This document shows, piece after piece, positions 31,063 through 54,319 of a stretch of DNA of 64,000 nucleotides (the stretch's first letter is position 1; each line of letters opens with the position of its first letter). The notes below the pieces were generated by a model. It saw only the letters and a program-made list of their open reading frames with translations, had not been told where the DNA came from and ran no database searches. Both the position numbers and the translations under genes were made by a program. This DNA comes from an uncultured Syntrophaceae bacterium (GTDB lineage Bacteria > Desulfobacterota > Syntrophia > Syntrophales > UBA2192): NCBI GenBank assembly GCA_964628025.1, contig CAZVLL010000006.1, positions 946-64,945 on the forward strand, read 5' to 3'.

Positions 31063-32852
<1,790 letters not shown>

Positions 32853-32860
<8 letters not shown>

Positions 32861-33182
32861 CGAACACCTGACCCCGAGCGAGAGACGCGAAAAAATTGCC
32901 GAGGAGTTCACCCGGAAGGTTGGCACGAAAGAGGCGAGGCGTGTCAAGGGCAAAACGCAGAAGGACGAAACCATCTGGTTCGGCCTCGGGATGTTCGGAA
33001 TTGTGGGCTGGTCTGTGGTGATCCCGTCGCTTCTCTTCACGGCCCTCGGTCTCTGGATTGACCGGTCATGGCCGAGCCGATTTTCCTGGACGCTCATGCT
33101 GCTCATCATGGGGGTTGCCGTGGGGTGCATGAATGCGTGGTACTGGGTGAAGCGCGCCCGGCAGGATATCATGAGGGACTGA
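32853..33182 (+). CDS. atpQ: N-ATPase accessory membrane subunit AtpQ (AtpZ/AtpI-like)
   Basis: Two TM helices (WFGLGMFGIVGWSVVIPSLL..., WTLMLLIMGVAVGCMNAWYWV). Canonical third position in N-ATPase operons. Confidence 0.75.
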
Positions 33183-33185
33183 AAT

Positions 33186-33251
33186 GAGGGGTGGAGGGTT
33201 GAGGGCAGAGGGTCAAGGGGCGAGGGTACAGGGTACAGAAGGGATAAGGGA
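33186..33251 (+). promoter_or_regulatory. intra-operon G-rich tract: nine AGGG(G) units between atpQ and atpR (G-quadruplex-type / multi-SD-like sequence)
   Basis: GAGGGGTGGAGGGTTGAGGGCAGAGGGTCAAGGGGCGAGGGTACAGGGTACAGAAGGGATAAGGGA on the sense strand. It fills the only sizeable intergenic gap of the operon. Confidence 0.5.
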
Positions 33252-33256
33252 TAACG

Positions 33257-33565
33257 ATGATTCTTGAGCTCATCACATCGTTTTTCGTCGGGACCGGGAT
33301 CGGGTGGATTTATTTTGCCGGGCTGTGGGAGACGGTGCGGAGGATTCCCGACGATCCGAAGCCTTTTCGGAGGATAGCCCTGAGCTATATCCTCCGGATG
33401 GGGGTGGCCCTGACCGGCTTTTATCTCGTCACGGACGGACAGTGGGAACGGCTCGCCGCAGCCATGCTGGGATTTGTCGCCATGCGGGGAATGATGCTTC
33501 GCAGGCTGGGACGGACATCGGTCCGGTTTGCCGAAGGAGAATCCTATGGAAGTCGTAGCCATTGA
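33257..33565 (+). CDS. atpR: N-ATPase accessory membrane subunit AtpR
   Basis: 102 aa with three hydrophobic segments and conserved Arg residues (WETVRRI, YILRMG). Fourth position, as in N-ATPase operons. Confidence 0.75.
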   Translation: MILELITSFFVGTGIGWIYFAGLWETVRRIPDDPKPFRRIALSYILRMGVALTGFYLVTDGQWERLAAAMLGFVAMRGMMLRRLGRTSVRFAEGESYGSRSH

Positions 33566-34277
33566 CCAGATCAGCCCTGACCAGGTCATCCTGTTCACCT
33601 GGGGACTCGTCACGATCAACGCGACCCTGGTGTACACGTGGATGATCATGGGAATGCTCGTTCTCGGTTCCATCGCGATCACCGGCAACCTTTCTTCGGA
33701 GCGAACGATGTCCCGCTGGCAGAACATGCTGGAGGTCATCATCGGCACGATCCGCTCTGAGATCCGCGATATCGCCAGGGAGGGAGCCGATACGTACTTT
33801 CCCTTCATCGCGACGCTCTTTCTTTTTATTCTCTTTTCCAACCTCTTCACCTTCATCCCGGGATACGTGGCGCCCACGTCGTCTCTTACGACAACGTCGG
33901 CCCTCGCCGTCCTGGTCTTCTTCGCCGTTCCGATGTACGGGATCTCCAAGAACGGAATCGTCGAGTATCTGAAGGAATATTTCCGGCCCACCTTCATTTT
34001 CTTTCCATTTCACATCATGGGGGAGTTTTCGAGGACCCTGGCCCTGGCCGTCCGGCTATTCGGGAATCTCATGAGCCACGAAAAGGTCATCGCCATCCTG
34101 CTTGCCGTGACTCCCCTGTTTTTCCCGGTGGTGATGCAGGTGCTGGGACTCATGATCGGCATCATCCAGGCGTACATCTTCGCCATCCTGGCCATGGTGT
34201 ATATCGCCTCGGCCACCCAGACCCACGAGGAGACGGATCACAAGATAAAAAAGGAAACGGGACCCGTTCAACACTGA
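33546..34277 (+). CDS. atpB: N-type F1Fo ATPase, Fo subunit a
   Basis: RBS GAAGGAGA 5 nt upstream of ATG 33546. Conserved stator Arg context LALAVRLFGNLMSHE and C-terminal IQAYIFAILAMVY. Confidence 0.9.
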   Translation: MEVVAIDQISPDQVILFTWGLVTINATLVYTWMIMGMLVLGSIAITGNLSSERTMSRWQNMLEVIIGTIRSEIRDIAREGADTYFPFIATLFLFILFSNLFTFIPGYVAPTSSLTTTSALAVLVFFAVPMYGISKNGIVEYLKEYFRPTFIFFPFHIMGEFSRTLALAVRLFGNLMSHEKVIAILLAVTPLFFPVVMQVLGLMIGIIQAYIFAILAMVYIASATQTHEETDHKIKKETGPVQH

Positions 34278-34298
34278 AAGAAGGACAGGAGGATCGGT

Positions 34299-34577
34299 AT
34301 GGACAGCGTGAGCATTGTTGCAATGGCGTCGATTATTACAGCGGGGATTTGCATGGGAATCGGAGCGATCGGACCCGGCCTCGGACAGGGCAGGGCCGTT
34401 CAGGGTGCGCTCAACGCGATTGCGCAGCAGCCCGACGAGCGGAACTCGTTGACGCGAACCCTCTTCGTGGGTCTGGCCATGATCGAGTCCATCGCGATTT
34501 ACTGCTTCGTGATTTCGATGATCCTGGTCTTTGCAAATCCGTTCTGGGCCTATGTCGTTCGCAAAGCAGGAGGGTAA
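34299..34577 (+). CDS. atpE: N-type F1Fo ATPase, Fo subunit c
   Basis: Hairpin protein with GPGLGQG in helix 1, loop QQPDER, and carboxylate motif LAMIESIAIY in helix 2. Confidence 0.92.
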   Translation: MDSVSIVAMASIITAGICMGIGAIGPGLGQGRAVQGALNAIAQQPDERNSLTRTLFVGLAMIESIAIYCFVISMILVFANPFWAYVVRKAGG

Positions 34578-34580
34578 TCC

Positions 34581-35351
34581 ATGCACATCGACTGGTTTGT
34601 ATTCCTCTGCCAGATCGTGAACCTGTTGCTGCTGCTCTTCCTGCTGAAGAAGTTCCTCTACGGGCGGATCATCGGGGCCATGGACGCACGGGAGGCCCGG
34701 ATCTCAGCTACCTTCGAGCAGGCCGAGAAGGCCCGCGAGGAGGCACGGGCGGCCCTGGAGCGCCAGGAGAGGAGGCTTGCGGACTTCGAGTCGGAGCACG
34801 AGGCCATGATGAACAAGGCCCGCGAGGATGCCGAGGTCCACCGCAGGGAACTGATGGAAAGCGCGCGGGAGCAGATCGAACAGGTACAGGCCCGGTGGAT
34901 CGAGACGATACGGTCGGAGCGGGATACCTTTCTCCACGAGCTGCGCCGGCTTGCCGGGAACCAGATTTACTCCATTACGAGGCAGGTCCTGAAGGATCTG
35001 GCCGGACTGGAGCTGGAAACGCGTATCGTGGAGATCCTGATGAATCGGATCGAGACCCTGAACGAGGAGGAGCGCGGAAAATTCAGGACGGCAGTTCCCG
35101 AAGGGGGATCCATTATCGTCCAGAGCGCCTTCGACATTCCGGAGGATGAGCAGCGCAGGCTTGATGAGGCGATCCATCGCTGCATCGCCGGCGGGACTCC
35201 GGTGGTCTTCGAACGATCCGAGAACATCATGATGGGCTACGAACTCAAGACGGACGGCCACAAGATCTCCTGGAGCATCAAAGACTACATGGATTCCCTG
35301 GAAGAGAAATTCTACCACGCCCTCTATGAGGAGGCCCGGGAGAAACGATGA
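34581..35351 (+). CDS. atpF: N-type F1Fo ATPase, Fo subunit b (long form, 256 aa)
   Basis: Single N-terminal TM helix followed by a long charged helix. It is about 100 aa longer than canonical b, and there is no separate delta gene in the operon. Confidence 0.85.
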   Translation: MHIDWFVFLCQIVNLLLLLFLLKKFLYGRIIGAMDAREARISATFEQAEKAREEARAALERQERRLADFESEHEAMMNKAREDAEVHRRELMESAREQIEQVQARWIETIRSERDTFLHELRRLAGNQIYSITRQVLKDLAGLELETRIVEILMNRIETLNEEERGKFRTAVPEGGSIIVQSAFDIPEDEQRRLDEAIHRCIAGGTPVVFERSENIMMGYELKTDGHKISWSIKDYMDSLEEKFYHALYEEAREKR

Positions 35352-35371
35352 GCTCGCAAAAGGGGTAGAAC

Positions 35372-36928
35372 ATGAGCATGCCGAGAGAAAAGGAAGAACT
35401 GACGGAATTCCTCGACGATACGTTCAAGACCCTGGATCAGGTCCTGGCGGACCAGCATCCGGAACTCAAGCAGCGGGAAGTGGGCATTGTGAACTATGTG
35501 GGACACGGCATTGTCCGGGTGCAGGGGTTGCCCAACATCAAGTCCGAGGAGGTTGTGCTCTTTCCCCAAAACGTGCAAGGACTCGTCTTCAATATCGACC
35601 CCGATGAGATCGGGATCATCCTGCTTGGGCCGAGCGAGCAGATCGTTTCGGGCTCCGAAGTGAAGCGGACCGACCGCGTCCTCGACGTGCCCGTCGGAGA
35701 GGCCCTGATCGGGCGGGTTGTCGATGCCATCGGAAGACCGCTGGACAACCAGGGGGAAATCCGATCCTCCCGTCGGCTTCCCGTCGAGCGGGAAGCGCCC
35801 GCCGTCATGGCGCGCGACCCCGTCACGGCGCCTCTCCAGACCGGGATCAAGGTCATCGACGCCCTGATCCCCATCGGTCGCGGACAACGGGAACTCATCG
35901 TCGGGGACCGACAGACCGGGAAAACGGCGATTGCCATGGACACCATCATCAACCAGTGGGACAAGAACGTCCTCTGCATCTACTGCGCCGTCGGCAAGAA
36001 GTCCTCCGATGTCGCCAAAGTCATCGCGGATCTGAAACAGCACGACGCCATGAAGTATACCGTTGTCGTCGCCGCCACGGGGGAGGACCCACCGGGGCTG
36101 CAGTTCATCGCCCCCTACGCGGCAACCTCCATGGGGGAGTACTTCATGTCGCGGGGGCGAGACGTGCTCATCGTGTACGATGATTTGACCTATCATGCCC
36201 GGGCCTACCGGGAACTTTCGCTTTTGCTGAGACGGCCGCCGGGCCGGGAGGCCTTCCCGGGGGACATCTTCTACATTCACTCAAGGCTGCTCGAGCGTTC
36301 CACCCATCTGCGCAAGGAACATGGCGGAGGATCGCTCACGTCACTTCCCATCGTCGAGACGGAGGCCCAGGACATCTCGGCCTACATCCCGACGAATCTC
36401 ATTTCGATCACCGACGGTCAGATCTACCTCTCGCCGCGCCTCTTCCAGAAGGGCATCCTTCCACCCGTCGATGTGGGCAAATCGGTTTCCCGCGTGGGCG
36501 GCAAATGCCAGCTTCCGGCGTACCGGGCCGTCGCCGGCGATCTCCGGATCTCCTACTCCCAGTTCGAAGAGCTGGAGACCTTCTCCCGTTTCGGGACGCG
36601 ACTCGACGAGGCGACCCGGAGGGTGCTGGAGCGCGGCTGGCGCGTCCGGGAAATCCTGAAACAGCCCCAGTACAAACCCATCCGCGTGGCAGAGCAGATC
36701 GCAGCGCTTCTGGCGATCACGGGCGGGGCGCTGGATACTGTTTCCATTCCCCGGATCGGAGAGGCGGAAGCGGCCCTGAGAAATCAGGCCGTCGTGCAGT
36801 GCAAAGACCTGTGCGAGCGCATCGAATCGGGAGAAAAGCTCACGCTGGACGACCGCGACACCTTGCTGAAAATGTCCCGTTCCGCCACGGAAACCATGAA
36901 AGAAGAGGAGAAACATGCAGACCATTGA
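35372..36928 (+). CDS. atpA: N-type F1Fo ATPase, alpha subunit
   Basis: Walker [53 protein letters not shown]. Confidence 0.93.
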
Positions 36929-37820
36929 GTCTCTGAAACGCAGGATTCAGAGTGCCCAGGATCTCCTCGGGGTGGTGAAGACCATGAAGGCGCTAGCGGC
37001 CGTAAGCATCCGTCAGTACCAGAGGGCCGTCGAGTCGCTCTCGGACTACAACCGCACGGTGGAGATGGGACTGCAGGTCGTTCTGAAACGAAGCCGGGGT
37101 AGCTTTGCTCCCCTGAGGGAGTCTTCGGCGAAACGGATGGGCGCCATCGTCTTCGGGACAGACCAGGGCCTCTGCGGCCAGTTTAACAATATCGTCGCAA
37201 GCCATGCCCTGGACGAAATGAAAGCCCTTGGCATTCCGAAGGAAAACCGGATTGTCCTTGCCGTGGGGGTCCGGGTCGCCGACATCCTCGAAGATTCAGG
37301 GCAGAAGGTCCTGGAAGTCCTGAGTACGCCCGGATCGACGGCAGGCATCACGTCCGTGGTGCAGGACATCACCATGCTTCTCGAGGACTGGCGTTTCAAG
37401 CGACAGATCGAAAACATGGCCCTTTACTACAATGAGTACATTTCCGGGGCGAACTACCGGGCGAAAACGCTCAAGCTTCTGCCCGTTGACCGGGAATGGC
37501 TCAAGAACCTGGAAAAACGGAAGTGGGAATCGAGGACGATTCCCATGTACACGATGAACTGGGAGACCATCTTCCGCTCCCTCATCCGGGAGTATCTTTT
37601 CGTGTCGCTCTACCGGGCCTTCGCCGATTCGCTGGCGAGCGAGAATGCAAGCCGACTGGCGGCCATGCAGAGCGCCGAGAAGAACATCGAGGAGAGGCTG
37701 GAGGAGCTTTTCGGCCAGTTCCACCGCCAGCGGCAGAGTACCATTACGGAAGAACTCCTCGACATCGTGAGCGGCTTCGAGGCACTGGGCGGCACCGGGC
37801 AGGCCGGTGCAGTTGGATAA
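36915..37820 (+). CDS. atpG: N-type F1Fo ATPase, gamma subunit
   Basis: N-terminal [28 protein letters not shown] and C-terminal [15 protein letters not shown] helices are typical of gamma. Overlaps the atpA stop. Confidence 0.88.
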
Positions 37821-39694: not shown

Positions 39695-39727
39695 AAATCC
39701 CGGCACCATCGTGCCGGGATTTTTTTA
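39695..39727. terminator. bidirectional intrinsic terminator between convergent genes
   Basis: AAATCCCGGCAC - CATC - GTGCCGGGATTT flanked by an A-run and a T-run. The T-run overlaps the stop of the minus-strand hdrB-like gene. Confidence 0.8.
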
Positions 39728-40597
39728 TGCGAGTCCCCTGCTGCGGAGTAGGGGAAGGGAACTGACCAGCAGTTTATTCAGACCGGTCTGCCTGGGGGGA
39801 AACCCATAGGCAAGACCCATCAGTTGTGTAAAATAGAGTACCGGCAGGTCGTAGAGAATGCCCTGCGCTTTTTCGATGGCCTTCTGCCGGGAGTCCAGGT
39901 TGACCTGGCACATCGGGCAGGCAACCACGATCGCGTCGGCGCCGGCCCCGCGGGCGGACTTCAGCACCTGCCCGCCCAGGTCGATGACGATGTCCGTCTG
40001 GGATGCGGCAAAAGCCCCCCCGCAGCACTCGGCCTTGTGGGACCATGGGACCGTATCGGCACCCAGCGCATGCAGGAGGCTATCCATGGAGGTCGGCTGC
40101 TCGGGATCGTCGAAGCAGACAATGGCACGGGGCCTTGTGAGGAGGCAACCGTAGTAAGCGGCGAGTTTCAATCCTTTCAGGGGTCTTAAGACTGGTTCGG
40201 CGAGCCGCTGCAAGCCCGTCCATTCCACAAGGGCCTGCATGAGGTGAGACACGACAGGGAGGTTCGAGAGCGGCGCCTCGACGACCATTTCCATCCTCTC
40301 CCGCACTTCCGTCGAATGTTTCAATGCATGGGCGACGCCCTTCATGCGATTGAAACAGCCTGCACAGGGGGTGGTTACCCGGTCGAGGTTCATGCGGTTG
40401 ACGGAGGCGAGATTGCGTGCGCTCAAGCCCAGGGTCAGCTCGCGGTCGAGGCTGTGGGCCGCCGTAGCACCGCAGCAGTTCCAGTCCTCGACCTCCAGCA
40501 GGCGGATTCCGAGACGCCTGCAGACGAGCTCCGCGGAACGACCGTATTCTCGGGCGATGCCATGGAGGGAGCATCCGGGGTAGTAGGCGATGTCCAT
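39725..40597 (-). CDS. hdrB: HdrB-like protein with two CCG domains (distal copy)
   Basis: YYPGCSLHG...EDWNCCGA and AAYYGCLLTRP...AECCGGAF are two CCG-domain signatures. I prefer ATG 40597 (MDIAYYPGC). Confidence 0.8.
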   Translation of the reverse strand: MDIAYYPGCSLHGIAREYGRSAELVCRRLGIRLLEVEDWNCCGATAAHSLDRELTLGLSARNLASVNRMNLDRVTTPCAGCFNRMKGVAHALKHSTEVRERMEMVVEAPLSNLPVVSHLMQALVEWTGLQRLAEPVLRPLKGLKLAAYYGCLLTRPRAIVCFDDPEQPTSMDSLLHALGADTVPWSHKAECCGGAFAASQTDIVIDLGGQVLKSARGAGADAIVVACPMCQVNLDSRQKAIEKAQGILYDLPVLYFTQLMGLAYGFPPRQTGLNKLLVSSLPLLRSRGLA

Positions 40598-40602
40598 CCC
40601 GT

Positions 40603-41184
40603 TCAATCCTTCTTGTGAATCCATTCACCATGGAAAAGGCGTCTTACCGTTTCCAGGCCTTTGACCCCTGACGAAAAGGGGTTCAGTTTTCCCTTGAGGA
40701 ACATCTTCAGGCCGAGTTCGGCGTCGTTTGTGTACCGGCCCGTTGCCGCGTTGAACCGGATCATGAGGCCCATCTCCGAGATGCGCCCTCTTTCTCGGAT
40801 CTGCTCGAGCATGAGGTTGTGAAAGAGCCCAACGGCGGGACGGGTGGCCGGGATTCCCTTCCGATGGGCCTTCTCCCGGAGATGGTCCAGGATCTGCGGG
40901 ATATCGATGCCCGAAGGGCAGCGGTCGAGGCAAAGATGGCAGGAAAGGCAGATCCAGAGTGCGTCCATTTTCATCAGGGTCTCTTCCGCACCCAGCTTCA
41001 CGAGCTGAACGATTTTCCGCGGGGTGTAGTCGAAGACATGTCCGTTGGAACAGCCCCCGGAGCACTTCCCGCACTCGAGGCAGGTATCGAGGTCGATGCC
41101 GAAGAGATCCTTCAGCTCCCTTTTCAGGGCACTGTCGGTCTTTTCAAGCCGTATCGGTGTGTAGAAATCCGGGTTCATGCTCAT
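40603..41184 (-). CDS. hdrC: HdrC-like 2x[4Fe-4S] ferredoxin-domain protein (distal copy)
   Basis: CLECGKCSGGC and CLSCHLCLDRCP cluster motifs. Size 193 aa. Confidence 0.8.
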   Translation of the reverse strand: MSMNPDFYTPIRLEKTDSALKRELKDLFGIDLDTCLECGKCSGGCSNGHVFDYTPRKIVQLVKLGAEETLMKMDALWICLSCHLCLDRCPSGIDIPQILDHLREKAHRKGIPATRPAVGLFHNLMLEQIRERGRISEMGLMIRFNAATGRYTNDAELGLKMFLKGKLNPFSSGVKGLETVRRLFHGEWIHKKD

Positions 41185-41187
41185 CCT

Positions 41188-42222
41188 TCAGGGACTCTGG
41201 CTGAACAGCGCAATGACGCCTGCGGCCGCCGCCGCGCCCTCGTTCCGCGCACCGGCCGTTTCAACGGCAAAGCCGCATCCGCCGGCGAAGAAGACCCGTT
41301 CCGCGCACCGGACCGGCTCAAAGGGATCCTGTTCGATAAAGCCGTACTCGTCGGTGCGGCAGCCGAAGAGTCCGGCGAGAATACCCGTCTCACGGCGCGG
41401 CACAAGGGCCGAGGCCAGGACCACCACGTCGACGGCCACCTCGATCGGGATCCCCATCAGGGTGTCTTCGGCCCTGACGATCAGCCTGCCGTCTTCGGGC
41501 AGGACCTTGGCCGGTCGCCCCCGGACATAACGAACGTGCTTTTCCTCGATGACGTGCCGGACAAACTCCTCGTAGTGCCTGCCGGAAGCCCGGTAGTCCA
41601 TGTAGAAAACATAAACCCCGGCATCGGGGAAAAGGTCCTTGATGAGTCCCGCCTGCTTGGCCGTGTACATACAGCAGATCTTCGAGCAGTAAGGGTTTCC
41701 CTTCGATCGATCGCGGGACCCGACGCACTGGATGAAGGCCACACTGCCGGGCTTGTCCCCGACTCCGAGCGCCCATTGTTTCAGACGTTTTTCAAATTCC
41801 AGGGAATTCACAACGCCGGGATAGATCCCGTGGCCGTATTCCCCGTAGACCGAGGCATCCATCAGTTCAAAACCGGTGGCCACGATGACGGCCTCGACGT
41901 CCAGCTCGCTTTCGCTGCCGTCGTGCAGGCTTTTCAGCGAGACACGGAAACCCCTTTCCTGTCGCAGGCTCGATGTGACAACGGTCTGCGTTCGGATCGA
42001 AGCCTGTTGCGACCGGACGAGGAGGGACTTTCGCTGCTCGATCAGCTCCCCGGGATTTTCCCATTTCGGGAAACTGCTGTGCAGGTCCCGCAGTGTGCCC
42101 CCGAGTTCGGGCTCTTTTTCTACCAGCACGACGCCAAACCCGGCCTGCGCGACCCGCAGCGCGGCTTCCATTCCTGCCGGGCCCCCTCCGATCACGAGGG
42201 CTGTTTTCTTTGTTTCCTGCAT
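41188..42222 (-). CDS. hdrA: short HdrA-like flavoprotein (344 aa, no ferredoxin domains)
   Basis: FAD fold ALVIGGGPAGMEAAL...EKEPELGGT. HdrA-type Cys cluster motif CVGSRDRSKGNPYCSKICCMY. Confidence 0.8.
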   Translation of the reverse strand: MQETKKTALVIGGGPAGMEAALRVAQAGFGVVLVEKEPELGGTLRDLHSSFPKWENPGELIEQRKSLLVRSQQASIRTQTVVTSSLRQERGFRVSLKSLHDGSESELDVEAVIVATGFELMDASVYGEYGHGIYPGVVNSLEFEKRLKQWALGVGDKPGSVAFIQCVGSRDRSKGNPYCSKICCMYTAKQAGLIKDLFPDAGVYVFYMDYRASGRHYEEFVRHVIEEKHVRYVRGRPAKVLPEDGRLIVRAEDTLMGIPIEVAVDVVVLASALVPRRETGILAGLFGCRTDEYGFIEQDPFEPVRCAERVFFAGGCGFAVETAGARNEGAAAAAGVIALFSQSP

Positions 42223-42237
42223 GGAGCAGATTCCTTT

Positions 42238-43170
42238 CTAGAGGCCCAGCTTTTTCAGAACTCCGGCCAGTGAAACCGTGTTGGCCTCGAATCCCAGCTT
42301 TTCCAGCGGCACACCGATGGCAAGGGCGATGAGCTGGGAAAGGTCAATCACGGGGATACTGAAATTCCCGCCGTACCGCTTGGCGAGATGGGGCTGTTCG
42401 CGGTCGAGCGCCACATTGCATCCCGGGCATACGGTCGTGATCAGTTCGACCCCTCCCTCCCGGGCGCTGGAGAGCTTTTTGAAGAGATGGGGCTGGACCG
42501 TTTCCTCTTTGTGGGTAAAACCCCGTCCCACCGAGTAGCCGCAGCACAACTGACGTTCTTGGTAAAATACCGGCGTGCCTCCTAGGATCTCCACGATTTC
42601 CTCATGAAACGTGGGGTAGCCGCCGTCGTCGAAGATCCCGTATTGCTTGGCCAGGTAGTGACAGCCATAGTGCACACCCACCTTCAGCCCGGCAAGGGGT
42701 CGCACCACCTTTTTGCCGATCTGTTCCCGCAGGCGGTACCACATTTCCTGGACGTGGTAGATTTGCGTTTTGCCCTCATACCGGTGTCCCCAGCGCGCAA
42801 CCAGGTCGTTGGCCATTTTCAGGTAGTCCGGGTTGTGCATCATGATGTGGGACAATTCGCTGAGGTATCCGTAGCACCCGTTGCAGAAGGTGTAGGTGTC
42901 CAGATCCTTCTTTTCGATGATGGAGAGGTTTCGGGCCGTGATGGCCAGAGAGACCTCCGGCTTGTGGGCCGAGCAGGTGAGAAGATATCCGGAGCAGCAG
43001 GTCTGGTCGGGATCCATCAGGGCGCGTATGCCGAGGCTCCCGAGGGTTTCCTTCACGGCGTTTTCCGTTCCGGGATATTCGAGACTGCCGGTGCAGCTCC
43101 GGAAAAGGAAAACGGCGTCGGGGATCGTGGGGATTTTCTCCTCCGGGCGGATGACCCGCTGCTTACGCAC
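42238..43170 (-). CDS. hdrB: HdrB-like protein with two CCG domains (proximal copy)
   Basis: FRSCTGSLEY...DQTCCSG and GVHYGCHYLAK...RQLCCGYS. Confidence 0.8.
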   Translation of the reverse strand: MRKQRVIRPEEKIPTIPDAVFLFRSCTGSLEYPGTENAVKETLGSLGIRALMDPDQTCCSGYLLTCSAHKPEVSLAITARNLSIIEKKDLDTYTFCNGCYGYLSELSHIMMHNPDYLKMANDLVARWGHRYEGKTQIYHVQEMWYRLREQIGKKVVRPLAGLKVGVHYGCHYLAKQYGIFDDGGYPTFHEEIVEILGGTPVFYQERQLCCGYSVGRGFTHKEETVQPHLFKKLSSAREGGVELITTVCPGCNVALDREQPHLAKRYGGNFSIPVIDLSQLIALAIGVPLEKLGFEANTVSLAGVLKKLGL

Positions 43171-43780
43171 CGATGATCCTCCCTTCCAGGTAAGAGAGTG
43201 CCAGCGGCTGGTCCTCTTCCTCGTGGATTCCTTCGAGAAATTCGGTCGTTCCGGTCAGATCAAAGAGGGTTCGGTACTCCTCCCGGGCCTTCTCCGAGAT
43301 CTCCGGCCAGGGGGTGAGCCCGATTCTGGTGCGCAGGGCCATGATCCGATCCCTTCCTTTGGCTCCGCCCGGCGCAAAGGTGAGGCCGTCCTCTCGCGCC
43401 CGAAGCGCAAATCGCTTGAACGGGACAATGTATTTCAGGCCGTGACGGGATGCGACGGCCCGATAGCGAAGCTGCATCATCAGAAGAGGGAAATGAATGT
43501 CCATCGGGCACTGGGTGTAGCAGCCGGCGCACCAGAAGCATCGCCAGATTTCCTCGCTGGCAAGCCAGCGGGTCTGAGAGCCGCTCAGGATATCGTGGAT
43601 GATCTGACGGGGATTGTAGGAAGGGGAAAGGCTCGCGACGGGGCAGGTACCGACGCATTTTCCGCACTGCAGGCAACTCTCAAGATTTTCAACGAGACGG
43701 TAGGCATCAACGACGCCGTAGAGATGATCGTCCCGGTCTCTGTATCGTTCTCTCGGCAACGCCGGCATCTCCTTTGGCAA
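43163..43780 (-). CDS. hdrC: HdrC-like 2x[4Fe-4S] protein (proximal copy)
   Basis: CLQCGKCVGTCP and CFWCAGCYTQCP. Overlaps the downstream hdrB start by 8 nt. Confidence 0.8.
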   Translation of the reverse strand: MPKEMPALPRERYRDRDDHLYGVVDAYRLVENLESCLQCGKCVGTCPVASLSPSYNPRQIIHDILSGSQTRWLASEEIWRCFWCAGCYTQCPMDIHFPLLMMQLRYRAVASRHGLKYIVPFKRFALRAREDGLTFAPGGAKGRDRIMALRTRIGLTPWPEISEKAREEYRTLFDLTGTTEFLEGIHEEEDQPLALSYLEGRIIGA

Positions 43781-43791: not shown

Positions 43792-43821
43792 ACCCTATTC
43801 GTGATGAACGAATTCTGTCAA
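43792..43821 (-). promoter_or_regulatory. candidate sigma70-type promoter with embedded 6-5-6 palindrome upstream of the hdr array
   Basis: Minus strand reads TTGACA - 18 nt - TAGGGT. The spacer contains ATTCGT-TCATC-ACGAAT (plus-strand coordinates 43797-43813). It lies in the 65-nt gap between the amidohydrolase and hdrC. Confidence 0.3.
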
Positions 43822-43845: not shown

Positions 43846-45174
43846 TCAGGGTTTTTCCCTGACGCGGGCCGCAATCTGGCGCACGTCGTCCATGACCTTC
43901 GGCAGGTTCATGGTATGCAGGATCCGGTTTCGCATGACGATCTTTCCGTTGATGACCGAATCCCGCACGTCGCTGCCCCGGCAGGCATAGACGATCTGGG
44001 AGTACAGACTGTACAGTGGCGTAAGGTGCGGCTTTCTCATGTCCAAAACGATGATGTCGGCACATTTCCCGGGCTCGATGGACCCGATGAGATCTTGAAT
44101 TCCCAGCGCACGGGCGCCACCGATCGTGGCGATCGTAAGCGCCGTTGCGGCATCCATGGCGGTCGGATCCATGGTAGAGACCTTGTGGATCTTCGCCATC
44201 GTATCGAGCTCGAGCAGCATGTCCAGATCGTTGTTGCTCGCGCACCCGTCCGTCCCCAGACCGACGGGAATCCCGCGCTTCATGAGTTCCGGAATACGCG
44301 CGATGCCTGATGCGAGCTTCATGTTGCTCTCGGGGCAGTGGCAGACGGACGTGCCGGTTGCCGCAAGGATGTCCATCTCGCTCTCGTCGAGCCACACGCA
44401 GTGCACGGCTGCCGTTTTGCCGCCGAGAATGCCGATCCTGTCGAGATAGTGAACCGGCCGAAGCCCGTAGCGTGAAACAATGATGTCCACCTCCTCCTTC
44501 GTCTCGGCGAGGTGCATCATGAAGGGTACGTCCGCTTCCCCGGCAATTCGCTTCACCGTCTGCAGGGTTTCCGTTGCGCAGGTATAGGCGGAGTGGCAGA
44601 AGAGCGACGGCGTGACCATCGGGCTGAGGGGCTTCCATTTCGCGATGAATTTCTCTGCCGCCGACGCCTTGTTCCGGAGTTCGTCCGCATCGGGGGGAGA
44701 GAAATCGATGAACCCCTGGCCTGCCACGATGCGTACCCCGGCGTCGACGGCGGCCTGCACAACGTTGCTTTCATAAAAGTAGCTGTCACAACAGGTCGTT
44801 GTCCCTGAGAGAATCATCTCGGCCATCCCGAGGAGGGCGCCCCGGTAGATCATGTCGCGGTTGACGTGCTTCGCCTCGGCGGGGAACATGTGATCGTGAA
44901 GCCACTCCATCAGCGGCAGGTCGTCGGCAAGCCCGCGAAAGCACGTCATCGGCAGATGGGTGTGCGTGTTCACCAGGCCCGGCATGACGACGCAGCCTGT
45001 GGCGTCGATGGTTTCAGTTGTTCGTATCGGGGGGGCATCGGCCCTGTTCGAAACGAAACGGATCCTGCCTGCGGAGATGCCGATGACGGAGTCCTCGATG
45101 ACGTCCATACGGTCGGAAAGGGTGAGTGCCGTTCCCCCTGTGATGAGAATGTCTATCGTTTCTGCCGGGTTCAT
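43846..45174 (-). CDS. mtaD: amidohydrolase, MTA/SAH-deaminase (MtaD)-like, copy 1
   Basis: PGLVNTHTHLPMTCFRGLADDLPLMEWL, HLAETKEE, AVHCVWL, LGTDGCASNNDLDM: the metal-ligand pattern of the TRZ/ATZ-MtaD subgroup. Confidence 0.75.
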   Translation of the reverse strand: MNPAETIDILITGGTALTLSDRMDVIEDSVIGISAGRIRFVSNRADAPPIRTTETIDATGCVVMPGLVNTHTHLPMTCFRGLADDLPLMEWLHDHMFPAEAKHVNRDMIYRGALLGMAEMILSGTTTCCDSYFYESNVVQAAVDAGVRIVAGQGFIDFSPPDADELRNKASAAEKFIAKWKPLSPMVTPSLFCHSAYTCATETLQTVKRIAGEADVPFMMHLAETKEEVDIIVSRYGLRPVHYLDRIGILGGKTAAVHCVWLDESEMDILAATGTSVCHCPESNMKLASGIARIPELMKRGIPVGLGTDGCASNNDLDMLLELDTMAKIHKVSTMDPTAMDAATALTIATIGGARALGIQDLIGSIEPGKCADIIVLDMRKPHLTPLYSLYSQIVYACRGSDVRDSVINGKIVMRNRILHTMNLPKVMDDVRQIAARVREKP

Positions 45175-45175
45175 G

Positions 45176-46510
45176 TCAAACTCCCTGCATCCCTAGACTG
45201 TCCCGGATCCGCCGGGCGATACGGTTGACGCGATCCATGACCTCCTCCTCGTCGACGGTGAGTAATTTTCTGTTTTTCATCACTACCCGACCGTTGATTA
45301 CGACGGAGTCCACGTCGGACCCGGAGGCGCAATAGACGAGGTGTGAATCTTCGTGGTAGAGGGGTGTCAGGTGGGGCCGGTTAAAATCGACGGTGATGAT
45401 GTCGGCCTTCATGCCCGGCCGCAGGACCCCGACTTTTCCTTCCAGCCCGAGGGCACGGGCGCCGTCGCGAGTCGCCATTTTCAGGACCGTCGCGGCACTC
45501 ATGACCGTGGGGTCCAGGCGGAAGGCCTTATGAAGCTTGGCCGCCGTGTCCATCTCCTGAAACATGTCCAGGTTGTTGTTGCTTGCGCACCCATCCGTGC
45601 CCAGGGCCACCGTCACTCCCGCCGCCAGCAGGTCCGGTATAGGTGCAACGCCCGAAGCCAGTTTCATGTTGCTCTCGGGGTTGTGAACGACCTTCACTCC
45701 CGCCCGGGCGAACATCTCGATCTCCTCGGTTTCAAGCCATACGCAGTGAAAGGCCACGAGGTTGTCCTCAAGCAGGCCGATGTCGCGGAGGTATTGCACA
45801 GGGCTACGCCCAAGCTTTTCGAGGAGGCCGTCCCTTTCCGATTTCGTCTCCAGGAGGTGCAGTGCCAGGGGGGCCCCGTAGCGGTCGGCCAGCGCCTTGG
45901 ATTTTTTCAGAAGATCCTCCGAGCACGTGTAGAGGGCGTGAGGCTCCACGGTGATCCGGACCAGCGGGTCTTCGGCCCATTTCTCCAGGAGCTCCTTCGT
46001 GACTGCGAGGCCTTCATCGGGCGTCTTGAAGCGGGGGGAAGGGAAGTCGAAAAGCACTTCCCCGAGAAGGCAGCGCATCCCGGCGCTTTTTGCGGCTTTG
46101 GCCATCTCCTCTTCGAAGATGTACATGTCGCAGAACGTGGTCGTTCCCGAGCGGATCATCTCGATGCAGGCCAGCAGGCTTCCCCAGTAAGCCAGTTCCG
46201 GGTCCACGTTTTTCGCTTCGGCGGGGAAAATATAGTTGTTGAGCCACTCCATGAGTTCCAGGTCATCGGCAATTCCCCGGAAGCAGGTCATGGCGGCATG
46301 GGTATGGGCATTGACAAGCCCGGGCATGATCACGTGGCTTGTTGCGGAAATCGTATCCCTGCCGCGGTAGCGTTTCGCAATGTCGGCCCGGGGACCCATG
46401 GCGACAATCGTGTCTTTATGAATAACCAGCGCGCCCGACGGGATCGTCGGATTCGTCTCGTCGAGTGTGACGATCGTACCGCCTTCAATGAGGATGTCGA
46501 CTTCCTGCAT
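45176..46510 (-). CDS. mtaD: amidohydrolase, MtaD-like, copy 2 (tandem paralogue)
   Basis: Same motifs (PGLVNAHTHAAMTCFRGIADDLELMEWL, LGTDGCASNNNLDM). Start moved to ATG 46510 (RBS GGGAGAG). The longer track ORF would run into the tRNA gene. Confidence 0.75.
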   Translation of the reverse strand: MQEVDILIEGGTIVTLDETNPTIPSGALVIHKDTIVAMGPRADIAKRYRGRDTISATSHVIMPGLVNAHTHAAMTCFRGIADDLELMEWLNNYIFPAEAKNVDPELAYWGSLLACIEMIRSGTTTFCDMYIFEEEMAKAAKSAGMRCLLGEVLFDFPSPRFKTPDEGLAVTKELLEKWAEDPLVRITVEPHALYTCSEDLLKKSKALADRYGAPLALHLLETKSERDGLLEKLGRSPVQYLRDIGLLEDNLVAFHCVWLETEEIEMFARAGVKVVHNPESNMKLASGVAPIPDLLAAGVTVALGTDGCASNNNLDMFQEMDTAAKLHKAFRLDPTVMSAATVLKMATRDGARALGLEGKVGVLRPGMKADIITVDFNRPHLTPLYHEDSHLVYCASGSDVDSVVINGRVVMKNRKLLTVDEEEVMDRVNRIARRIRDSLGMQGV

Positions 46511-46578
46511 ACATTCTCTCCCGAGTAACTTGACAGCCTTCTGCAAAGATACTATACATGCCGAGGTTTGCCGCAAAA

Positions 46579-46666
46579 GCCTGGGTGGCGGAACTGGTAG
46601 ACGCAAGGGACTTAAAATCCCTCGGTACTTAGTGCTGTGCGGGTTCGATTCCCGCCCCAGGCACCA
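46579..46666 (+). tRNA. tRNA-Leu (anticodon UAA), class II with long variable arm, CCA encoded
   Basis: Acceptor GCCTGGG/CCCAGGC. D-arm GUGGCGGAACUGGUAGACGC as in bacterial tRNA-Leu. Anticodon stem AGGGA/TCCCT with loop CTTAAAA. T-arm GCGGG-TTCGATT-CCCGC. Discriminator A plus CCA. Confidence 0.9.
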
Positions 46667-47343: not shown

Positions 47344-47610
47344 TGATGGTCTCCTTGTTTTGATGCATCGGAAAGCGAAATATCCGAGTCGGTACGGCGT
47401 CAGTTTTATATTTTTCGCGCGCCTTTCACAAGAAAAATCCCATTACGTTTCTCATCCTTTTTCTGACGGCAAAGTAAGGGATATCGAAGGGTCAATTCAT
47501 CGTATCCCCGATTCATTCATGGGCTGAATCATAAGAGAATGGCAGTACGGCAAGGGAGTTCATCGGGTCAACAGGCACCCGGACAAATGCAATGTGGAGG
47601 TGAGGTGTTC

Positions 47611-47931
47611 ATGGAACCTTTGCGTATCCTTCCCGAGGAGGCACATGAGAAGGTTGCAGCGGGAAAAGCCCTTCTGGTCTGCGCCTACCCGGACGACGAG
47701 ACGTTCCGGAAGATGATGTTGCAGGGAGCGGTGTCCCTGAAGGAATTTGAATCAAGGATCGCCGGTCTCTCGAAGAGCCAGGAGATTATTTTCTACTGCG
47801 CTTGAACGAAGGAGCACACCTCTGCCGGTCTGGCAGAGAAATACCTGGTCATGGGATATGAGAATGTCAGGGCGCTCGGCGGTGGCGTCGAAGGATGGAA
47901 AAGGGCAGGGTATACCATTGTCGGCGCGTAA
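47611..47931 (+). CDS. rhodanese-like sulfurtransferase, probable selenoprotein (in-frame UGA at 47803-47805 read as Sec65)
   Basis: RBS GGAGGTGAGG. The frame continues through the TGA into ...TKEHTSAGLAEKYLVMGYENVRALGGGVEGWKRAGYTIVGA*, which completes the rhodanese fold. A SECIS-like hairpin lies 14 nt downstream of the UGA. Confidence 0.65.
47820..47838 (+). promoter_or_regulatory. bacterial SECIS-like hairpin
   Basis: CTCTGCC-GGTCT-GGCAGAG is a perfect 7-bp stem. The apical GGUCU recalls the E. coli fdhF SECIS core (...GCAGGUCUGC..., from memory). The loop starts 21 nt after the UGA. Confidence 0.6.
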
Positions 47932-48013
47932 CGCCTATGGAGGCCGCCGTCGATCATGCCTGCCGGCGAAGGTTTACCGAAAAACGTGAATAGGGATCGG
48001 TAAGGAGGATACG

Positions 48014-48133: not shown

Positions 48134-51100
48134 TCAACGAATACGGTCCAGCTCCTGCCTGACGCTGATGGCGAGCCGTTCCTGGAGGTAGGGTTTCCGG
48201 ACGTAGGCGCCGGCGCCCAGGGTCTGGGCTTCCACCACCCGCTCGGTTTGCGCGTAGCCGCTCACGACGATGGCCTTCTGCCCCGGATGGATCTTCACGA
48301 TCTCCCGGTACGTGTCCAGCCCGTCCATCCCCGGTTCCATCAGCATGTCCAGGACCACCAGGTCCACTCTGTTCGTCCGGAGATACTCCACGGCCGCCTC
48401 GCCGCTCGCCACACCCGTCGCACTGTAGTTCAGACCAGTCAGGATCTTCACCGCCAGATCCCGCTGACCCCCCACGTCGTCCACCACCAGGACCGTCTCC
48501 CTTCTCCCCCGGTACCGCGACACCCGGAAGACCGGCTTTTCGAGGATTGCTTCCTTCGTCACCGGAAAATACAGGGTAAACGTCGTTCCCTTGCCCTTCT
48601 CGCTTGCCACTTCGATGTACCCGTCATGATCGTTCACCGTCCCCCAGACCACCGAAAGCCCCAGGCCCGTCCCGCTGTAACGACCCATCGCCTTCTTCGT
48701 GTAAAAAGGCTCGAAGATCCGCTTCATATCCTCCGGGGAGATCCCTTCCCCCGTGTCCGATACCGACAGAACCACATACTCTCCCTTCCGGACCTTGTCG
48801 TACCCGGAAACGGAACTCTCCAAAACCTGTTTCCGCGTTCGGATCGTCACCGTTCCCCCGATGGGCATCGCCTCGCACGCGTTGGACACCAGGTTCATGA
48901 TCGTCTTGCCGATGTGAACGGGGGAGGCCAGGATGTTCCCAAGCTCCTCCTCCAGATCGGTCTGCACCTCCACGTGGGGATGATACGAAACCAGGGTCAT
49001 ATACTCGGGAGAGGCCAGGACCTCGCAAACCGACAGGTTCAGGTTCATGGCCTTGTGGACGTGGACCCCCCGCCGGGCCATCACCAGCAGATCCTGCACA
49101 ATCGCAGCCGCCTTCTCACCTCCTTCCATGATGCGAAGCACGTCGGACCGCCACGGGCTCGACGCGTCAATGTGATCCAGCAAAAGCTCCGAATACCCCA
49201 CCAGGATGCCCAGGTGATTGTTCAGCTCGTGGGCCACGCCGCCCGCCAGGACCCCCAGGGCCTCCATCTTCTCCGAACGAATCAGCCGCTCCTTCAACTC
49301 CCGACGATCCTCCTCCGCACGCTTGTGGGAGGTGATGTCCCGGAAATATCCCCGCACTTTCGTGACCCTGCCGTCGACCTTCACCGCCCGTCCCATGGCA
49401 TGCGTCACAAGACGCCTTCCCTTGGCGCTGGTGAAGCGAAGTTCGAGATCGAAGGGCTCCCCGGTTTCTGTGCAGCGCTGCAGCGCCGCGATCAACGTTG
49501 ACCGATCCGGCTCATCGTAGAAGAGGGTGGCTTTAGGCAGGTCATAGTTTTCATGCTCGGGAATGTCGTGAATCCGGTATGTCTCCCGGGTCCAGTATAC
49601 TTTCTTTGTCCCTACGTCGAGTTCCCAGCCGCCGACCTTGCCCAACTCGCCTATTTCATCGAGTAATATCTCACTTCGGCGCAAGGCATCCTCCGCCTTT
49701 TTGCGTTCGGTGATGTCCACATTGTTTCCAACGTAGCCGCTGATCACTCCTGATTCATCCCGTATCGGCGAGGCAACGCCGTAAACCCAGGTTGCTATTC
49801 CCTCACGGTTTTGAAATCGGTATTCGAGACCCCAGGTTCCTTCCGATTCCACCATTCTGTACCAGGAGTTGCGAATCAATTCCCGATCCTCCGGATGGAT
49901 CCCTTCCACCCAGCCTTCGCCCATCGCTTCTTCGGTCGTGAGTCCCGCCATCCTGCGCCAACGCTTGTTTACATAGCTGCAGTGACCGATATTATCGGTC
50001 AGATAAATCCCGACGGGTGATGACTCGGCGAGGGCGCGGAATTTGTTTTCGTTTTCCCGGAGCGCATTCTGAATTTTTCTTTCCTCGGTGATGTCATGGG
50101 CCTGGGTAAGCAACATTTCCCTGTCGCCGATCCTGACGATCTCGGCGGACATGATCATCTCCAATTCCCTGCCGTCTCTCGACTTGAGAATCATAACTAC
50201 ATCGCGAAGACATCTCTTTTCTTTGAGCGTTTCGATAAGTTGTGCCCGCTGTTCCGGTTCGTTCCATACTCCCAGTTCGACTGCCGTTTTGCCCATTACC
50301 TCTTGACGGGAAAATCCCGTCGTGTTGAGCCACTGGTCGTTGACATTGACGAGGCGGCCGTTCGCCATATCTGTAATGGCCATCGGTGACGGGCTTGAGT
50401 GAAATGCCGTCCTGAACAGATCTTCGCTTGCCCGCAAATCCTTCTCTGCCTGCTTGCGTTTGGTCCTGTCGTGGATAATCTGGATTGTCAGCACCCGACC
50501 GTCCGGCCCTGGAAAGCAGTTTGAACTCAGTTCTACCGGAAACGTTGTTCCGTCCTTCCGCCGGAGTGTCAGTTCTCCTCTCCATTTTCCTGTCTGTACT
50601 CGCTCTTCAAGGGCTTTGCCCAGCCGATCATCCTGAACCACAATCCCGGCACGTCCGGCTTTGCATATCTCTTCTTCCATCATTCCGAGCATCTGCTGGG
50701 CTGCAACATTTGCAGACAAAACTTCGCCTGTGGGCTCGGTGACCAGGATAGCATCTAAACTGTTGTTGAAGATGGAACGGAAACGATTTTCGCTTGCACG
50801 CAAACCCTTCTCGGCCTGCTTCGCATCCGTGATATCGCGGCCGAAGACAGCCACGCGCACGACGGTTCCATCGGGTCCCTTCACGGGATAGATTCGCTGC
50901 TCGATGTGGCGGCCATCCCTGTCGTCCTCGAATTCGACAGGCTTGCCTGTCTTGAGGACCTGCTCCAGCATGACCCGGCGCCGGACCGCCAGGTCGGCAG
51001 GCAGGAAATCGAAGGCATTTTGCCCGACAACATCGGTTTTGCTGATCTTCAGGCGTTTGACGAATTCACTGTTGTGACACAGGATGATGCCGTCGCGGTC

Positions 51101-51208
51101 CATGAGGAAGAGTACGTCCATGGCAGCATCCAGGAAGGCCTGTAAAGCCTCCTCCTTTAGCCTCAGTTTTTCGATTAGCTCTTGCCTGGTCTTGTTTTCA
51201 TTGTGCAT
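48134..51208 (-). CDS. hybrid sensor histidine kinase: five PAS domains + HisKA + HATPase_c + receiver
   Basis: Five PAS units, each ending in a D(I/V)T(D/E)xK-type linker. H-box GGVAHELNNHLG, then N/G boxes (NACEAM, DTGEGI, GTGLGLS). C-terminal REC (VLVVDD...VVLDMLMPGMDG...KPY). Confidence 0.9.
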   Translation of the reverse strand: MHNENKTRQELIEKLRLKEEALQAFLDAAMDVLFLMDRDGIILCHNSEFVKRLKISKTDVVGQNAFDFLPADLAVRRRVMLEQVLKTGKPVEFEDDRDGRHIEQRIYPVKGPDGTVVRVAVFGRDITDAKQAEKGLRASENRFRSIFNNSLDAILVTEPTGEVLSANVAAQQMLGMMEEEICKAGRAGIVVQDDRLGKALEERVQTGKWRGELTLRRKDGTTFPVELSSNCFPGPDGRVLTIQIIHDRTKRKQAEKDLRASEDLFRTAFHSSPSPMAITDMANGRLVNVNDQWLNTTGFSRQEVMGKTAVELGVWNEPEQRAQLIETLKEKRCLRDVVMILKSRDGRELEMIMSAEIVRIGDREMLLTQAHDITEERKIQNALRENENKFRALAESSPVGIYLTDNIGHCSYVNKRWRRMAGLTTEEAMGEGWVEGIHPEDRELIRNSWYRMVESEGTWGLEYRFQNREGIATWVYGVASPIRDESGVISGYVGNNVDITERKKAEDALRRSEILLDEIGELGKVGGWELDVGTKKVYWTRETYRIHDIPEHENYDLPKATLFYDEPDRSTLIAALQRCTETGEPFDLELRFTSAKGRRLVTHAMGRAVKVDGRVTKVRGYFRDITSHKRAEEDRRELKERLIRSEKMEALGVLAGGVAHELNNHLGILVGYSELLLDHIDASSPWRSDVLRIMEGGEKAAAIVQDLLVMARRGVHVHKAMNLNLSVCEVLASPEYMTLVSYHPHVEVQTDLEEELGNILASPVHIGKTIMNLVSNACEAMPIGGTVTIRTRKQVLESSVSGYDKVRKGEYVVLSVSDTGEGISPEDMKRIFEPFYTKKAMGRYSGTGLGLSVVWGTVNDHDGYIEVASEKGKGTTFTLYFPVTKEAILEKPVFRVSRYRGRRETVLVVDDVGGQRDLAVKILTGLNYSATGVASGEAAVEYLRTNRVDLVVLDMLMEPGMDGLDTYREIVKIHPGQKAIVVSGYAQTERVVEAQTLGAGAYVRKPYLQERLAISVRQELDRIR

Positions 51209-54294: not shown

Positions 54295-54319
54295 AACTGC
54301 CAGGGAGCGTGAAGACCTG

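Follow-up and report, generated by a model that had tools for sequence, protein, structure and literature searches.

A five-gene hdrC-B-A-C-B cassette with a short HdrA: a probable Hdr-type complex of anaerobic syntrophs distinct from sulfur-oxidising sHdr

Flavin-based electron bifurcation has its paradigm in heterodisulfide reductase (Hdr)-type complexes; the sHdr pathway of sulfur oxidation has been recognised only recently. We examined a 64,000-nucleotide stretch of contig CAZVLL010000006.1 from an uncultured Syntrophaceae bacterium (positions 946 to 64,945; hereafter the window, to which all positions given without a locus number refer), in which five packed genes encode HdrC1, HdrB1, a short HdrA, HdrC2 and HdrB2 (hereafter the cassette). 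The cassette is probably not a sulfur-oxidising sHdr and probably serves a different substrate. On the strength of gene content and sequence comparison, we favour, with reasonable though not high confidence, a self-contained cytoplasmic Hdr-type iron-sulfur (Fe-S) flavoprotein complex that belongs to a distinct anaerobic-syntroph lineage and acts as an LbpA-independent thiol/disulfide module. As far as the searchable literature shows, this lineage, with its known design (short HdrA plus two CB pairs), is apparently undescribed.

Two groups of described systems are closest to it. Type I sHdr (Hyphomicrobium denitrificans, Aquifex aeolicus) is defined, in a GTDB-wide sHdr survey, by the syntenic order shdrC1-B1-A-H-C2-B2 (PMC11094781), and shares with the cassette the C-B-A-C-B order, two different HdrC/HdrB pairs, and a minimal HdrA of ~345 amino acids (aa) with flavin adenine dinucleotide (FAD) and one four-Cys cluster site. 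The FlxABCD-HdrABC complex of Desulfovibrio and HdrABC-MvhAGD of methanogens provide the closest sequences for the A core, B1, B2 and C2, and their HdrB and HdrC cofactor motifs are identical to those of the cassette; these complexes, however, have one CB pair, a ~650-aa HdrA with three additional Fe-S domains, and an input module (Flx, Mvh, Fdh) that is absent here. The design of a short HdrA with two different HdrCB pairs thus exists beyond sulfur oxidisers, in a coherent lineage with no LbpA at its loci and two canonical HdrB sites. If hdrC-B-A-C-B synteny and a short HdrA are taken as sufficient evidence of sHdr-type sulfur oxidation, genome annotation risks miscalls in syntrophs. The cassette is also a candidate for a missing redox module of these organisms, whose electron-transfer energetics have long posed a problem.

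The cassette and its distribution

The five co-oriented ORFs (open reading frames) occupy 39725-43780 on the minus strand and are listed here in the order of transcription:

43163-43780, minus strand: hdrC1-like gene, ORF of 205 aa from TTG 43780, with two CxxCxxCxxxCP motifs
42238-43170, minus strand: hdrB1-like gene, 310 aa, two CCG domains, complete 10-Cys signature
41188-42222, minus strand: short hdrA, 344 aa, thioredoxin-reductase-like FAD domain, with C166, C179, C183 and C184
40603-41184, minus strand: hdrC2-like gene, 193 aa, two four-Cys ferredoxin motifs
39725-40624, minus strand: hdrB2-like gene, ORF of 299 aa, two CCG domains, complete 10-Cys signature

Gene calls in the relatives L091 and L092 (L numbers designate loci in other genomes) and a Shine-Dalgarno-spaced TTG place the likely start of hdrC1 at TTG ~43759, giving 198 aa, and gene calls in relatives place that of hdrB2 at ATG 40597, giving 290 aa. 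C1 and B1 overlap by 8 nucleotides (nt), a 15-nt gap separates B1 from A, only 3 nt lie between hdrA and hdrC2, and C2 and B2 either overlap shortly or stand 5 nt apart, depending on the hdrB2 start chosen.

Pfam and NCBIfam identify both small proteins as 4Fe-4S dicluster/HdrC and both ~300-aa proteins as double CCG/HdrB, while the 344-aa protein matches the FAD/thioredoxin-reductase core of HdrA only. All five score well under the NCBIfam equivalog cut-offs: on TIGR03288 (HdrB), B1 and B2 reach 205 and 176 bits against a cut-off of 345, and the NCBIfam HdrA models give the window HdrA 161-211 bits against cut-offs of 1100-1400. HdrC1 is ferredoxin-like and predicted to bind two [4Fe-4S] clusters; the motifs of HdrC2 read CLECGKCSGGCS and CLSCHLCLDRCP, the first ending in S where P is expected. 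B1 and B2 each retain the full 2x(C...CC...CxxC) ten-Cys signature, which in B1 would fit two noncubane [4Fe-4S] clusters, and the four Cys of HdrA (C166-VGSRD...Y-C179-SKI-C183-C184) are the predicted site of one [4Fe-4S] cluster. Pfam, NCBIfam, PDB alignments and an AlphaFold2 (AF2) model agree that the N-terminal, inserted and C-terminal ferredoxin domains and the MvhD domain are all absent from this HdrA. The first-pass annotation of the window had described these five tightly packed minus-strand genes, the two double-CCG HdrB-like proteins and the 344-aa flavoprotein with its CVGSRD...YCSxxCC motif and no ferredoxin or MvhD domains, and all of this agrees with the domain scans and motifs; its assignment of two CxxCxxCxxxCP motifs to both HdrC proteins holds for C1 and fails for the first motif of C2. 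A chance arrangement is excluded because five co-oriented homologous genes recur in ~20 other loci. A 484-aa plus-strand ORF at 40819-42273 was rejected as a gene; it is a GC-rich antisense shadow of hdrA/hdrC2, and since it mirrors conserved hdrA it has apparent homologues in L004, L006 and L007.

To survey the cassette we scanned one genome per GTDB species with HdrA, classified the neighbouring ORFs, and examined the 80 best loci (HdrA identity at least 35%). Full-length relatives of the short HdrA (~344 aa) are numerous, with 51-99% identity (at least 58% in all but a handful), and include proteins of Syntrophales, Syntrophobacterales, Syntrophomonadaceae and metagenome-assembled genomes (MAGs) of other Bacillota. 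Wherever the contig covers it, the order C1-B1-A-C2-B2 is intact and A is followed directly by C2 in L001-L023 (apart from the fragmented L022; the cassette is cut at contig ends in L007, L014 and L018), in L091 and L092, and in one JGI contig. About 20 independent loci carry it intact, with variable flanks; across L001-L023, identity to the window HdrA falls as low as ~42%. Below this level, the loci are hdrCBA with a ~650-aa HdrA (Flx-Hdr type) or Anaerolineae multi-HdrA loci. By record title, the cassette carriers are Syntrophales, Syntrophobacter/Syntrophobacteraceae, Syntrophomonas/Syntrophomonadaceae, Desulfitobacteriia and Desulfosporosinus, along with one 'Desulfovibrio' MAG and MAGs labelled Thermoleophilia/Solirubrobacterales. 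Some MAG labels, especially the Solirubrobacterales/Thermoleophilia and 'Desulfovibrio' ones, may reflect binning errors.

Literature searches for the gene order C1-B1-A-C2-B2 and for 'sHdr-like' returned no description of the cassette. This fits the absence of well-known cultured syntrophs from the 80 best loci and the fragmented copy in the sole cultured carrier (see below). The Hdr complexes in syntroph proteomics papers (Swol_0400-0402, Hdr/Flox, HdrABC/HdrL) were considered as possible descriptions and are different from it.

Relationship to sHdr and to canonical Hdr

The layout had been read as a mirror of sHdr, and in architecture this is correct. The H. denitrificans sHdrA structure 6TJR aligns end to end with the window HdrA (6-339 to 2-339, 33-35% identity), and the AF2 model (pLDDT 86.6) superposes on 6TJR_A over its whole length with a template modelling (TM) score of 0.88/0.89. 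In the methanogen HdrA structures 5ODC, 8RVV and 7BKB, the window protein matches only residues ~140-240 and ~305-570. The AF2 model likewise covers no more of methanogen HdrA than the thioredoxin-reductase core, with TM scores of 0.9 normalised to the query and 0.46-0.49 normalised to the full-length target chains.

Sequence relationships point elsewhere. A partial H. denitrificans sHdrA sequence (6TJR residues 69-314, from a PDB alignment) served to find sHdrA proteins and reference loci, and an exhaustive search with a reference sHdrA added divergent sHdrA-type representatives; a plasmid collection searched at the protein level yielded no sHdr locus. Unrooted, bootstrapped neighbour-joining (NJ) trees with Kimura-type distances over 285-340 columns, annotated with bipartition supports, divide HdrA into three groups: the cassette (93%), the sHdrA type (99%), and the long methanogen/Flx/Anaerolineae proteins (100%). 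The sHdrA-type clade excludes the cassette HdrA, although an unrooted tree is compatible with a shared short-HdrA ancestor as well as with separate origins. Identities of the window HdrA after alignment trimming are 39-41% with long bacterial HdrAs (41% with a short Anaerolineae HdrA, on just 258 aligned columns), 34-36% with methanogen cores and 32-36% with sHdrAs. It aligns with the sHdrA of the type I locus L086 at 35% and 168 bits and, in its core, with a Flx-locus HdrA at 45% over 247 aa, while a profile of the cassette HdrA family gives ~270 bits to methanogen HdrA cores versus 217 bits to sHdrA.

The HdrB and HdrC subunits were compared with hdrCBA loci presumed to be 'Flx-type' (L059-L082, with a ~650-aa HdrA and one CB pair, mostly Desulfovibrionaceae by record title), and with sHdr loci. 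In the HdrB tree, cassette B1 forms its own clade (100%) and sHdrB1 a separate one (100%). In the tree alignment, B1 is closest to methanogen HdrB (30-32% identity, versus 20-25% to sHdrB1), and its best PDB match is the methanogen HdrB 9sfi_C (E=6e-47); against L086 it reaches 23% and 67 bits with sHdrB1, and 26% and 93 bits with sHdrB2. The sHdrB1 proteins are 363-466 aa long, compared with 310 aa for cassette B1, and in the L086 sHdrB1, the only one subjected to motif analysis, the Cys pattern is degenerate, with one CC and no C-terminal CxxC. Cassette B2 falls in its own clade (99%) among ordinary bacterial HdrBs, apart from the sHdrB2 clade (94%), with 46-47% identity to the D. piger Flx-locus HdrB versus 35-36% to sHdrB2 (35%, 176 bits for that of L086). 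C2 likewise aligns better with three Flx-locus HdrCs (33-35% and 120-121 bits for two, 32% and 97 bits for the third) than with sHdrC2 (67-83 bits). C1 is about equally far from all (26-28% to sHdrC1, 32-34% over ~95 aa to Flx HdrC); against L086 sHdrC1/sHdrC2, C1 and C2 show 26-30% identity and 53-67 bits. The cassette is thus sHdr-like in architecture, its A, C2 and B2 sequences lean to bacterial canonical Hdr, and B1 and C1 are unique. None of the HdrA and HdrB proteins falls into a characterised clade, the outcome on which the first-pass proposal of a variant complex had been made to depend.

The same proposal noted that lbpA, dsrE and tusA were missing and that no 'hyp' gene (sHdrH) lay in the 3-nt interval between hdrA and hdrC2. 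Four sHdr reference loci put these absences in perspective:

L086, type I sHdr: DsrE-C1(247)-B1(466)-A(349)-H(282)-C2-B2-x-LbpA, plus TusA, Sulf_transp-family transporters and radical-SAM
L089, type I sHdr: two LbpA, three DsrE, TusA
L087, type II sHdr: A-H-B3-ETF
L090 5768-15919 (MAG GCA_027454745.1), sHdr clade: HTH-C1-B1-A-C2-B2-LbpA-LbpA-rSAM-LplA-rSAM, no sHdrH (rSAM, radical-SAM)

By phmmer and profile hidden Markov models (HMMs), LbpA, DsrE, TusA and sHdrH were not found in the six-frame translated 64-kb window or in L001-L023 (flanks of ±8-10 kb per locus, 23 cassette loci; LbpA as a GCV_H profile built from 5 sequences), with L086 recovered as a control. No sLpl-type ligase or LipS-like radical-SAM protein turned up in the window or the cassette loci when the LplA and radical-SAM sequences of L086, L089 and L090 served as phmmer queries, and the Pfam-annotated cassette neighbourhoods agree with these results. 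SoxT, too, is missing. In the reference sHdr loci with adequate flanks (L086, L089 and L090), accessory genes stand next to the hdr genes in 3/3. The absence of 'hyp' is not diagnostic alone, because L090, inside the sHdr clade, also lacks sHdrH but keeps LbpA. L090 has the identical five-gene order, hdrA being followed directly by hdrC2; unlike the cassette, it has two LbpA and lipoate-assembly genes, an HdrA (P0280) within the sHdrA-type clade, and a B1 (363 aa) that groups with sHdrB1 (100%). What truly sets the cassette apart from sHdr is the lack of the LbpA/sulfur-transferase set, together with the canonical B1 that replaces the divergent sHdrB1.

Two sHdr-related loci are of interest in their own right. 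L090 is an H-less sHdr variant from whose 8-kb flanks DsrE and TusA are absent. L088 (245-6454) is a short-HdrA variant encoding a 357-aa CCG protein, which groups with sHdrB1 (100%), a 342-aa HdrA, a 107-aa ferredoxin and a 584-aa fused Fer4+CCG protein, followed by a PALP-family enzyme and a nitroreductase.

We therefore weighed whether the cassette might still be a genuine type I sHdr that has secondarily lost sHdrH and whose LbpA, sulfur transferases and lipoate maturation are encoded elsewhere in the genome. Gene order and minimal HdrA are those of sHdr, B2 is a clear sHdrB2 homologue, L090 demonstrates that a locus of the sHdr clade can do without sHdrH, accessory genes are scattered in Sulfolobaceae (PMC6067878), and a rhodanese gene lies ~3-4 kb from the cassette. 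The HdrA, however, lies outside the 99% sHdrA clade, B1 is a canonical 310-aa HdrB, C2 and B2 are nearer the Flx type than sHdrC2B2, the rhodanese gene has the opposite orientation and does not stay with the cassette in other loci, and ~20 loci lack accessory genes within 8-10 kb where L086, L089 and L090 all have them. The carriers are, by record title, strict anaerobes or syntrophs rather than sulfur oxidisers. In the GTDB-wide survey, all sHdr-containing Bacillota have type II (PMC11094781), from which it would follow that the Syntrophomonadaceae cassettes were not counted as sHdr there. Taken together, we regard a relocated sHdr as very improbable, and the separate clades and accessory-free loci support the first-pass suggestion of a variant Hdr-like complex with another substrate in an anaerobe.

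Proposed complex and electron routes

In canonical HdrA, electron routes with bifurcation at the FAD have been proposed from the M. wolfeii structure (PMC9012536). The short HdrA lacks both the C-terminal ferredoxin/MvhD part that serves as input in methanogens and the inserted ferredoxin of the low-potential output, and therefore two HdrB routes remain. By analogy with the methanogen (HdrABC)2 structure and with the sHdrAA'C1B1C2B2 complex predicted for sHdr (PMC11094781), the complex would most likely have the form HdrA2(C1B1)(C2B2); the HdrA dimer is presumed from 6TJR and the same prediction. One route would run between HdrB1, HdrC1 and the [4Fe-4S]/FAD of one HdrA, the other between HdrB2, HdrC2 and the [4Fe-4S]/FAD of the second (HdrA'), with the flavin dimer acting as a two-electron/one-electron hub between the HdrB sites. 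Because only the two HdrB routes and the flavins would be wired, the most likely activity is an interconversion of thiol/disulfide-type substrates at the two HdrB sites, which differ from each other. Either one site would oxidise and the other reduce, or both would reduce, with electrons entering at the flavin from some donor. A thiol/disulfide-converting module with two distinct catalytic HdrB sites is the best-supported mechanism, and we hold it to be somewhat better than an even bet.

Part of the sequence evidence would equally suit an Hdr part of a conventional bifurcating complex (Flx-Hdr, Mvh/Fdh-Hdr, HdrL) with a remotely encoded input module, which would reduce a protein or small-molecule disulfide (e.g., that of DsrC) and ferredoxin. 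C2, B2 and the HdrA core are most similar to Flx-locus proteins, the HdrA family profile prefers methanogen cores to sHdrA, and syntrophs and sulfate reducers are rich in Hdr-like complexes (PMC5947623). Against this, the short HdrA has none of the ferredoxin domains that carry electron input and low-potential output in the canonical enzyme, the Pfam-annotated contexts show no flx, mvh, fdh or MvhD gene beside the cassette at any locus, the cassette HdrA is split from the long HdrAs with 100% support, and a second, different CB pair, which canonical complexes lack, is always present. DsrC, moreover, cannot be the general substrate because sulfate reduction is not a trait of the Syntrophomonadaceae as a group, to which many carriers belong. 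We consider a conventional bifurcating role unlikely, though the most plausible of the alternatives weighed here.

Genomic context

In most lineages other than the Syntrophales subclade of the window, the cassette is accompanied by a recurring set of genes. A Gct-family coenzyme A (CoA)-transferase pair lies within 5 kb of it in 11 loci, all from other lineages; 9 of these (8 at a stricter threshold) have an organic-anion-type MFS transporter, a PrdR-like σ54 activator occurs in 10 loci (regulator match 582 bits), and a CoA-disulfide reductase with a rhodanese domain in 4 (518 bits). The Gct alpha subunit matches 1POI (E=1e-26, GctA family), the beta subunit keeps the TEGG glutamate motif, and L021 additionally encodes a thiolase and a DUF35 protein. 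The Gct/MFS/σ54 block is downstream of the cassette in Syntrophomonadaceae and upstream of it in Syntrophobacter and Desulfitobacteriia, and because the association persists across phyla despite this rearrangement, functional coupling can be argued. The cassette might accordingly take part in an inducible pathway that degrades an organic acid, perhaps one bearing a thiol or disulfide, or the CoA ester of such an acid, a suggestion that we put forward tentatively. The link to a Gct-type CoA-transferase, a transporter and a σ54 activator offers a concrete starting point for identifying what a non-methanogenic 'heterodisulfide' reductase acts on. In L001 (16124-17682), L011, L015, L017 and L019, a second Gct-like pair follows downstream of the MFS gene. 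The TEGG glutamate motif is missing from the beta subunit of this pair, which may therefore not be a transferase (AibAB and IpdAB relatives are among the PDB matches).

The same context would suit a different role, in which the CB pairs are not disulfide reductases but conduct electrons in the manner of SdhE, GlcF, LutA or GlpC, and the whole would be an organic-acid or acyl-CoA dehydrogenase/reductase with the carbon substrate reacting directly at the exposed HdrA flavin. The cassette shares CCG domains and dicluster ferredoxin modules with TfrB, SdhE and GlcF-LutA-type proteins; B2 scores 175 bits on the NCBIfam SdhE model (cut-off 500; TfrB, 51 bits, cut-off 385), C2 aligns with the C-terminal portion of the MFR SdhB model, and the tight, reshuffled association with Gct-type CoA-transferases, MFS transporters and the σ54 activator, with the thiolase and DUF35 protein of L021, is in keeping with such a role. 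Unlike those systems, however, the cassette has no FrdA/SdhA-, GlcD- or LutBC-type catalytic partner, and no quinone-interacting or membrane subunit is encoded. Both HdrBs keep the ten Cys of the noncubane disulfide-reducing site, B1 is closest to methanogen HdrB, the CoA-transferase/MFS/σ54 association is missing in the window's own subclade, and we know of no precedent for a carbon substrate reacting directly at an HdrA flavin. A conduit role thus appears doubtful.

More speculative again, and of about the same low probability, is a third, mechanistically distinct Hdr class, in which a minimal HdrA flavin dimer would stand between two different and fully catalytic HdrB sites and flavin-based bifurcation or confurcation would take place between two thiol/disulfide couples, possibly CoA-linked. 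Fed by organic acids or CoA esters, it would be a low-energy device for redox balancing or reverse electron transfer, horizontally exchanged among syntrophic Bacillota and Desulfobacterota.

Several points weigh against the thiol/disulfide module that we prefer. The trees are NJ trees of 285-340 columns, their methanogen sequences are partial and transcribed from HMMER alignments, and only three sHdr loci supply the B and C references. Stoichiometry and electron routing rest on analogy, and CCG proteins also serve as quinone-facing or hydroxy-acid-dehydrogenase conduits (SdhE, GlcF, LutA), as the SdhE match of B2 recalls. The CoA-transferase, MFS and σ54 partners are absent from the window and from its Syntrophales subclade, so that applying this context to the window locus is an extrapolation. 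Finally, in the sole cultured carrier among the loci found, Desulfosporosinus nitroreducens P130 (L022, 7889-11616), the cassette is fragmented, with hdrB1 split into two ORFs, hdrC2 missing and hdrB2 shortened, through either gene decay or an assembly error.

The conserved neighbourhood in the window's own subclade consists of an amidohydrolase gene, the cassette, a cytidylate-kinase-like gene and an N-type ATPase. Upstream of the cassette, the window contains:

43792-43821, minus strand: candidate promoter, TTGACA (43821-43816), 18-nt spacer, TAGGGT (43797-43792), in the 65-nt gap upstream of hdrC1
43846-45174 and 45176-46606, minus strand: tandem paralogous MtaD/TRZ-ATZ-type amidohydrolases, 5'-deoxyadenosine/methylthioadenosine (MTA) deaminase-like, below equivalog cut-offs
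47603-47932, plus strand: single-domain rhodanese ORF with an in-frame TGA (47806-47808) two residues after the active-site Cys (..IIFYCA-U-TKEHTS..)

The promoter was read by eye and is not called by a consensus scanner, making it a weak candidate. A scan for σ54 promoters upstream of hdrC1 found no excess over chance (26 matches, 25.4 expected), and no match was suitably placed or oriented. Syntrophales relatives have opposite-strand genes, for a TPR protein and a 257-aa protein, between the amidohydrolase and hdrC1, and because these precede hdrC1 the cassette is a separate transcription unit there.

The first-pass annotation had set the array beside the two amidohydrolases and a selenocysteine (Sec)-rhodanese. 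Both are present, but neither is conserved with the cassette and we reject them as partners. The amidohydrolases occur only in the closest relatives, which keep one copy, split from the cassette by the opposite-strand genes and probably not co-transcribed with it. The rhodanese ORF probably encodes a selenoprotein and scores 37.9 bits on Pfam Rhodanese with U replaced by C; a role in sulfur transfer to the cassette is unsupported, as the gene is oppositely oriented, stands ~3-4 kb upstream with an unrelated gene for a secreted protein in between, and has not been conserved alongside the cassette.

Beyond the rhodanese, a signalling cluster at 48134-56629 comprises a 1024-aa multi-PAS hybrid histidine kinase (minus strand), a 533-aa receiver-plus-histidine-kinase-like protein (plus strand), and 368-, 466- and 295-aa proteins (plus strand), the first two of which start receiver-like; all of these assignments are judged from the sequence rather than from a family scan. 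On the other side of the cassette, tandem cytidylate-kinase-like paralogues (PF13189; 37875-38708 and 38812-39651, plus strand) carry a Cys-rich N-terminal extension (CxxC...C...C), and one copy is kept beside the cassette, on the opposite strand, in Syntrophales relatives. They are preceded by a complete N-type ATPase operon (31108-37820, plus strand) encoding beta, epsilon, ATPase_gene1 (AtpQ-like), AtpR (PF12966), a, c, b, alpha and gamma, which is syntenic with the cassette in the Syntrophales relatives L007, L091 and L092.

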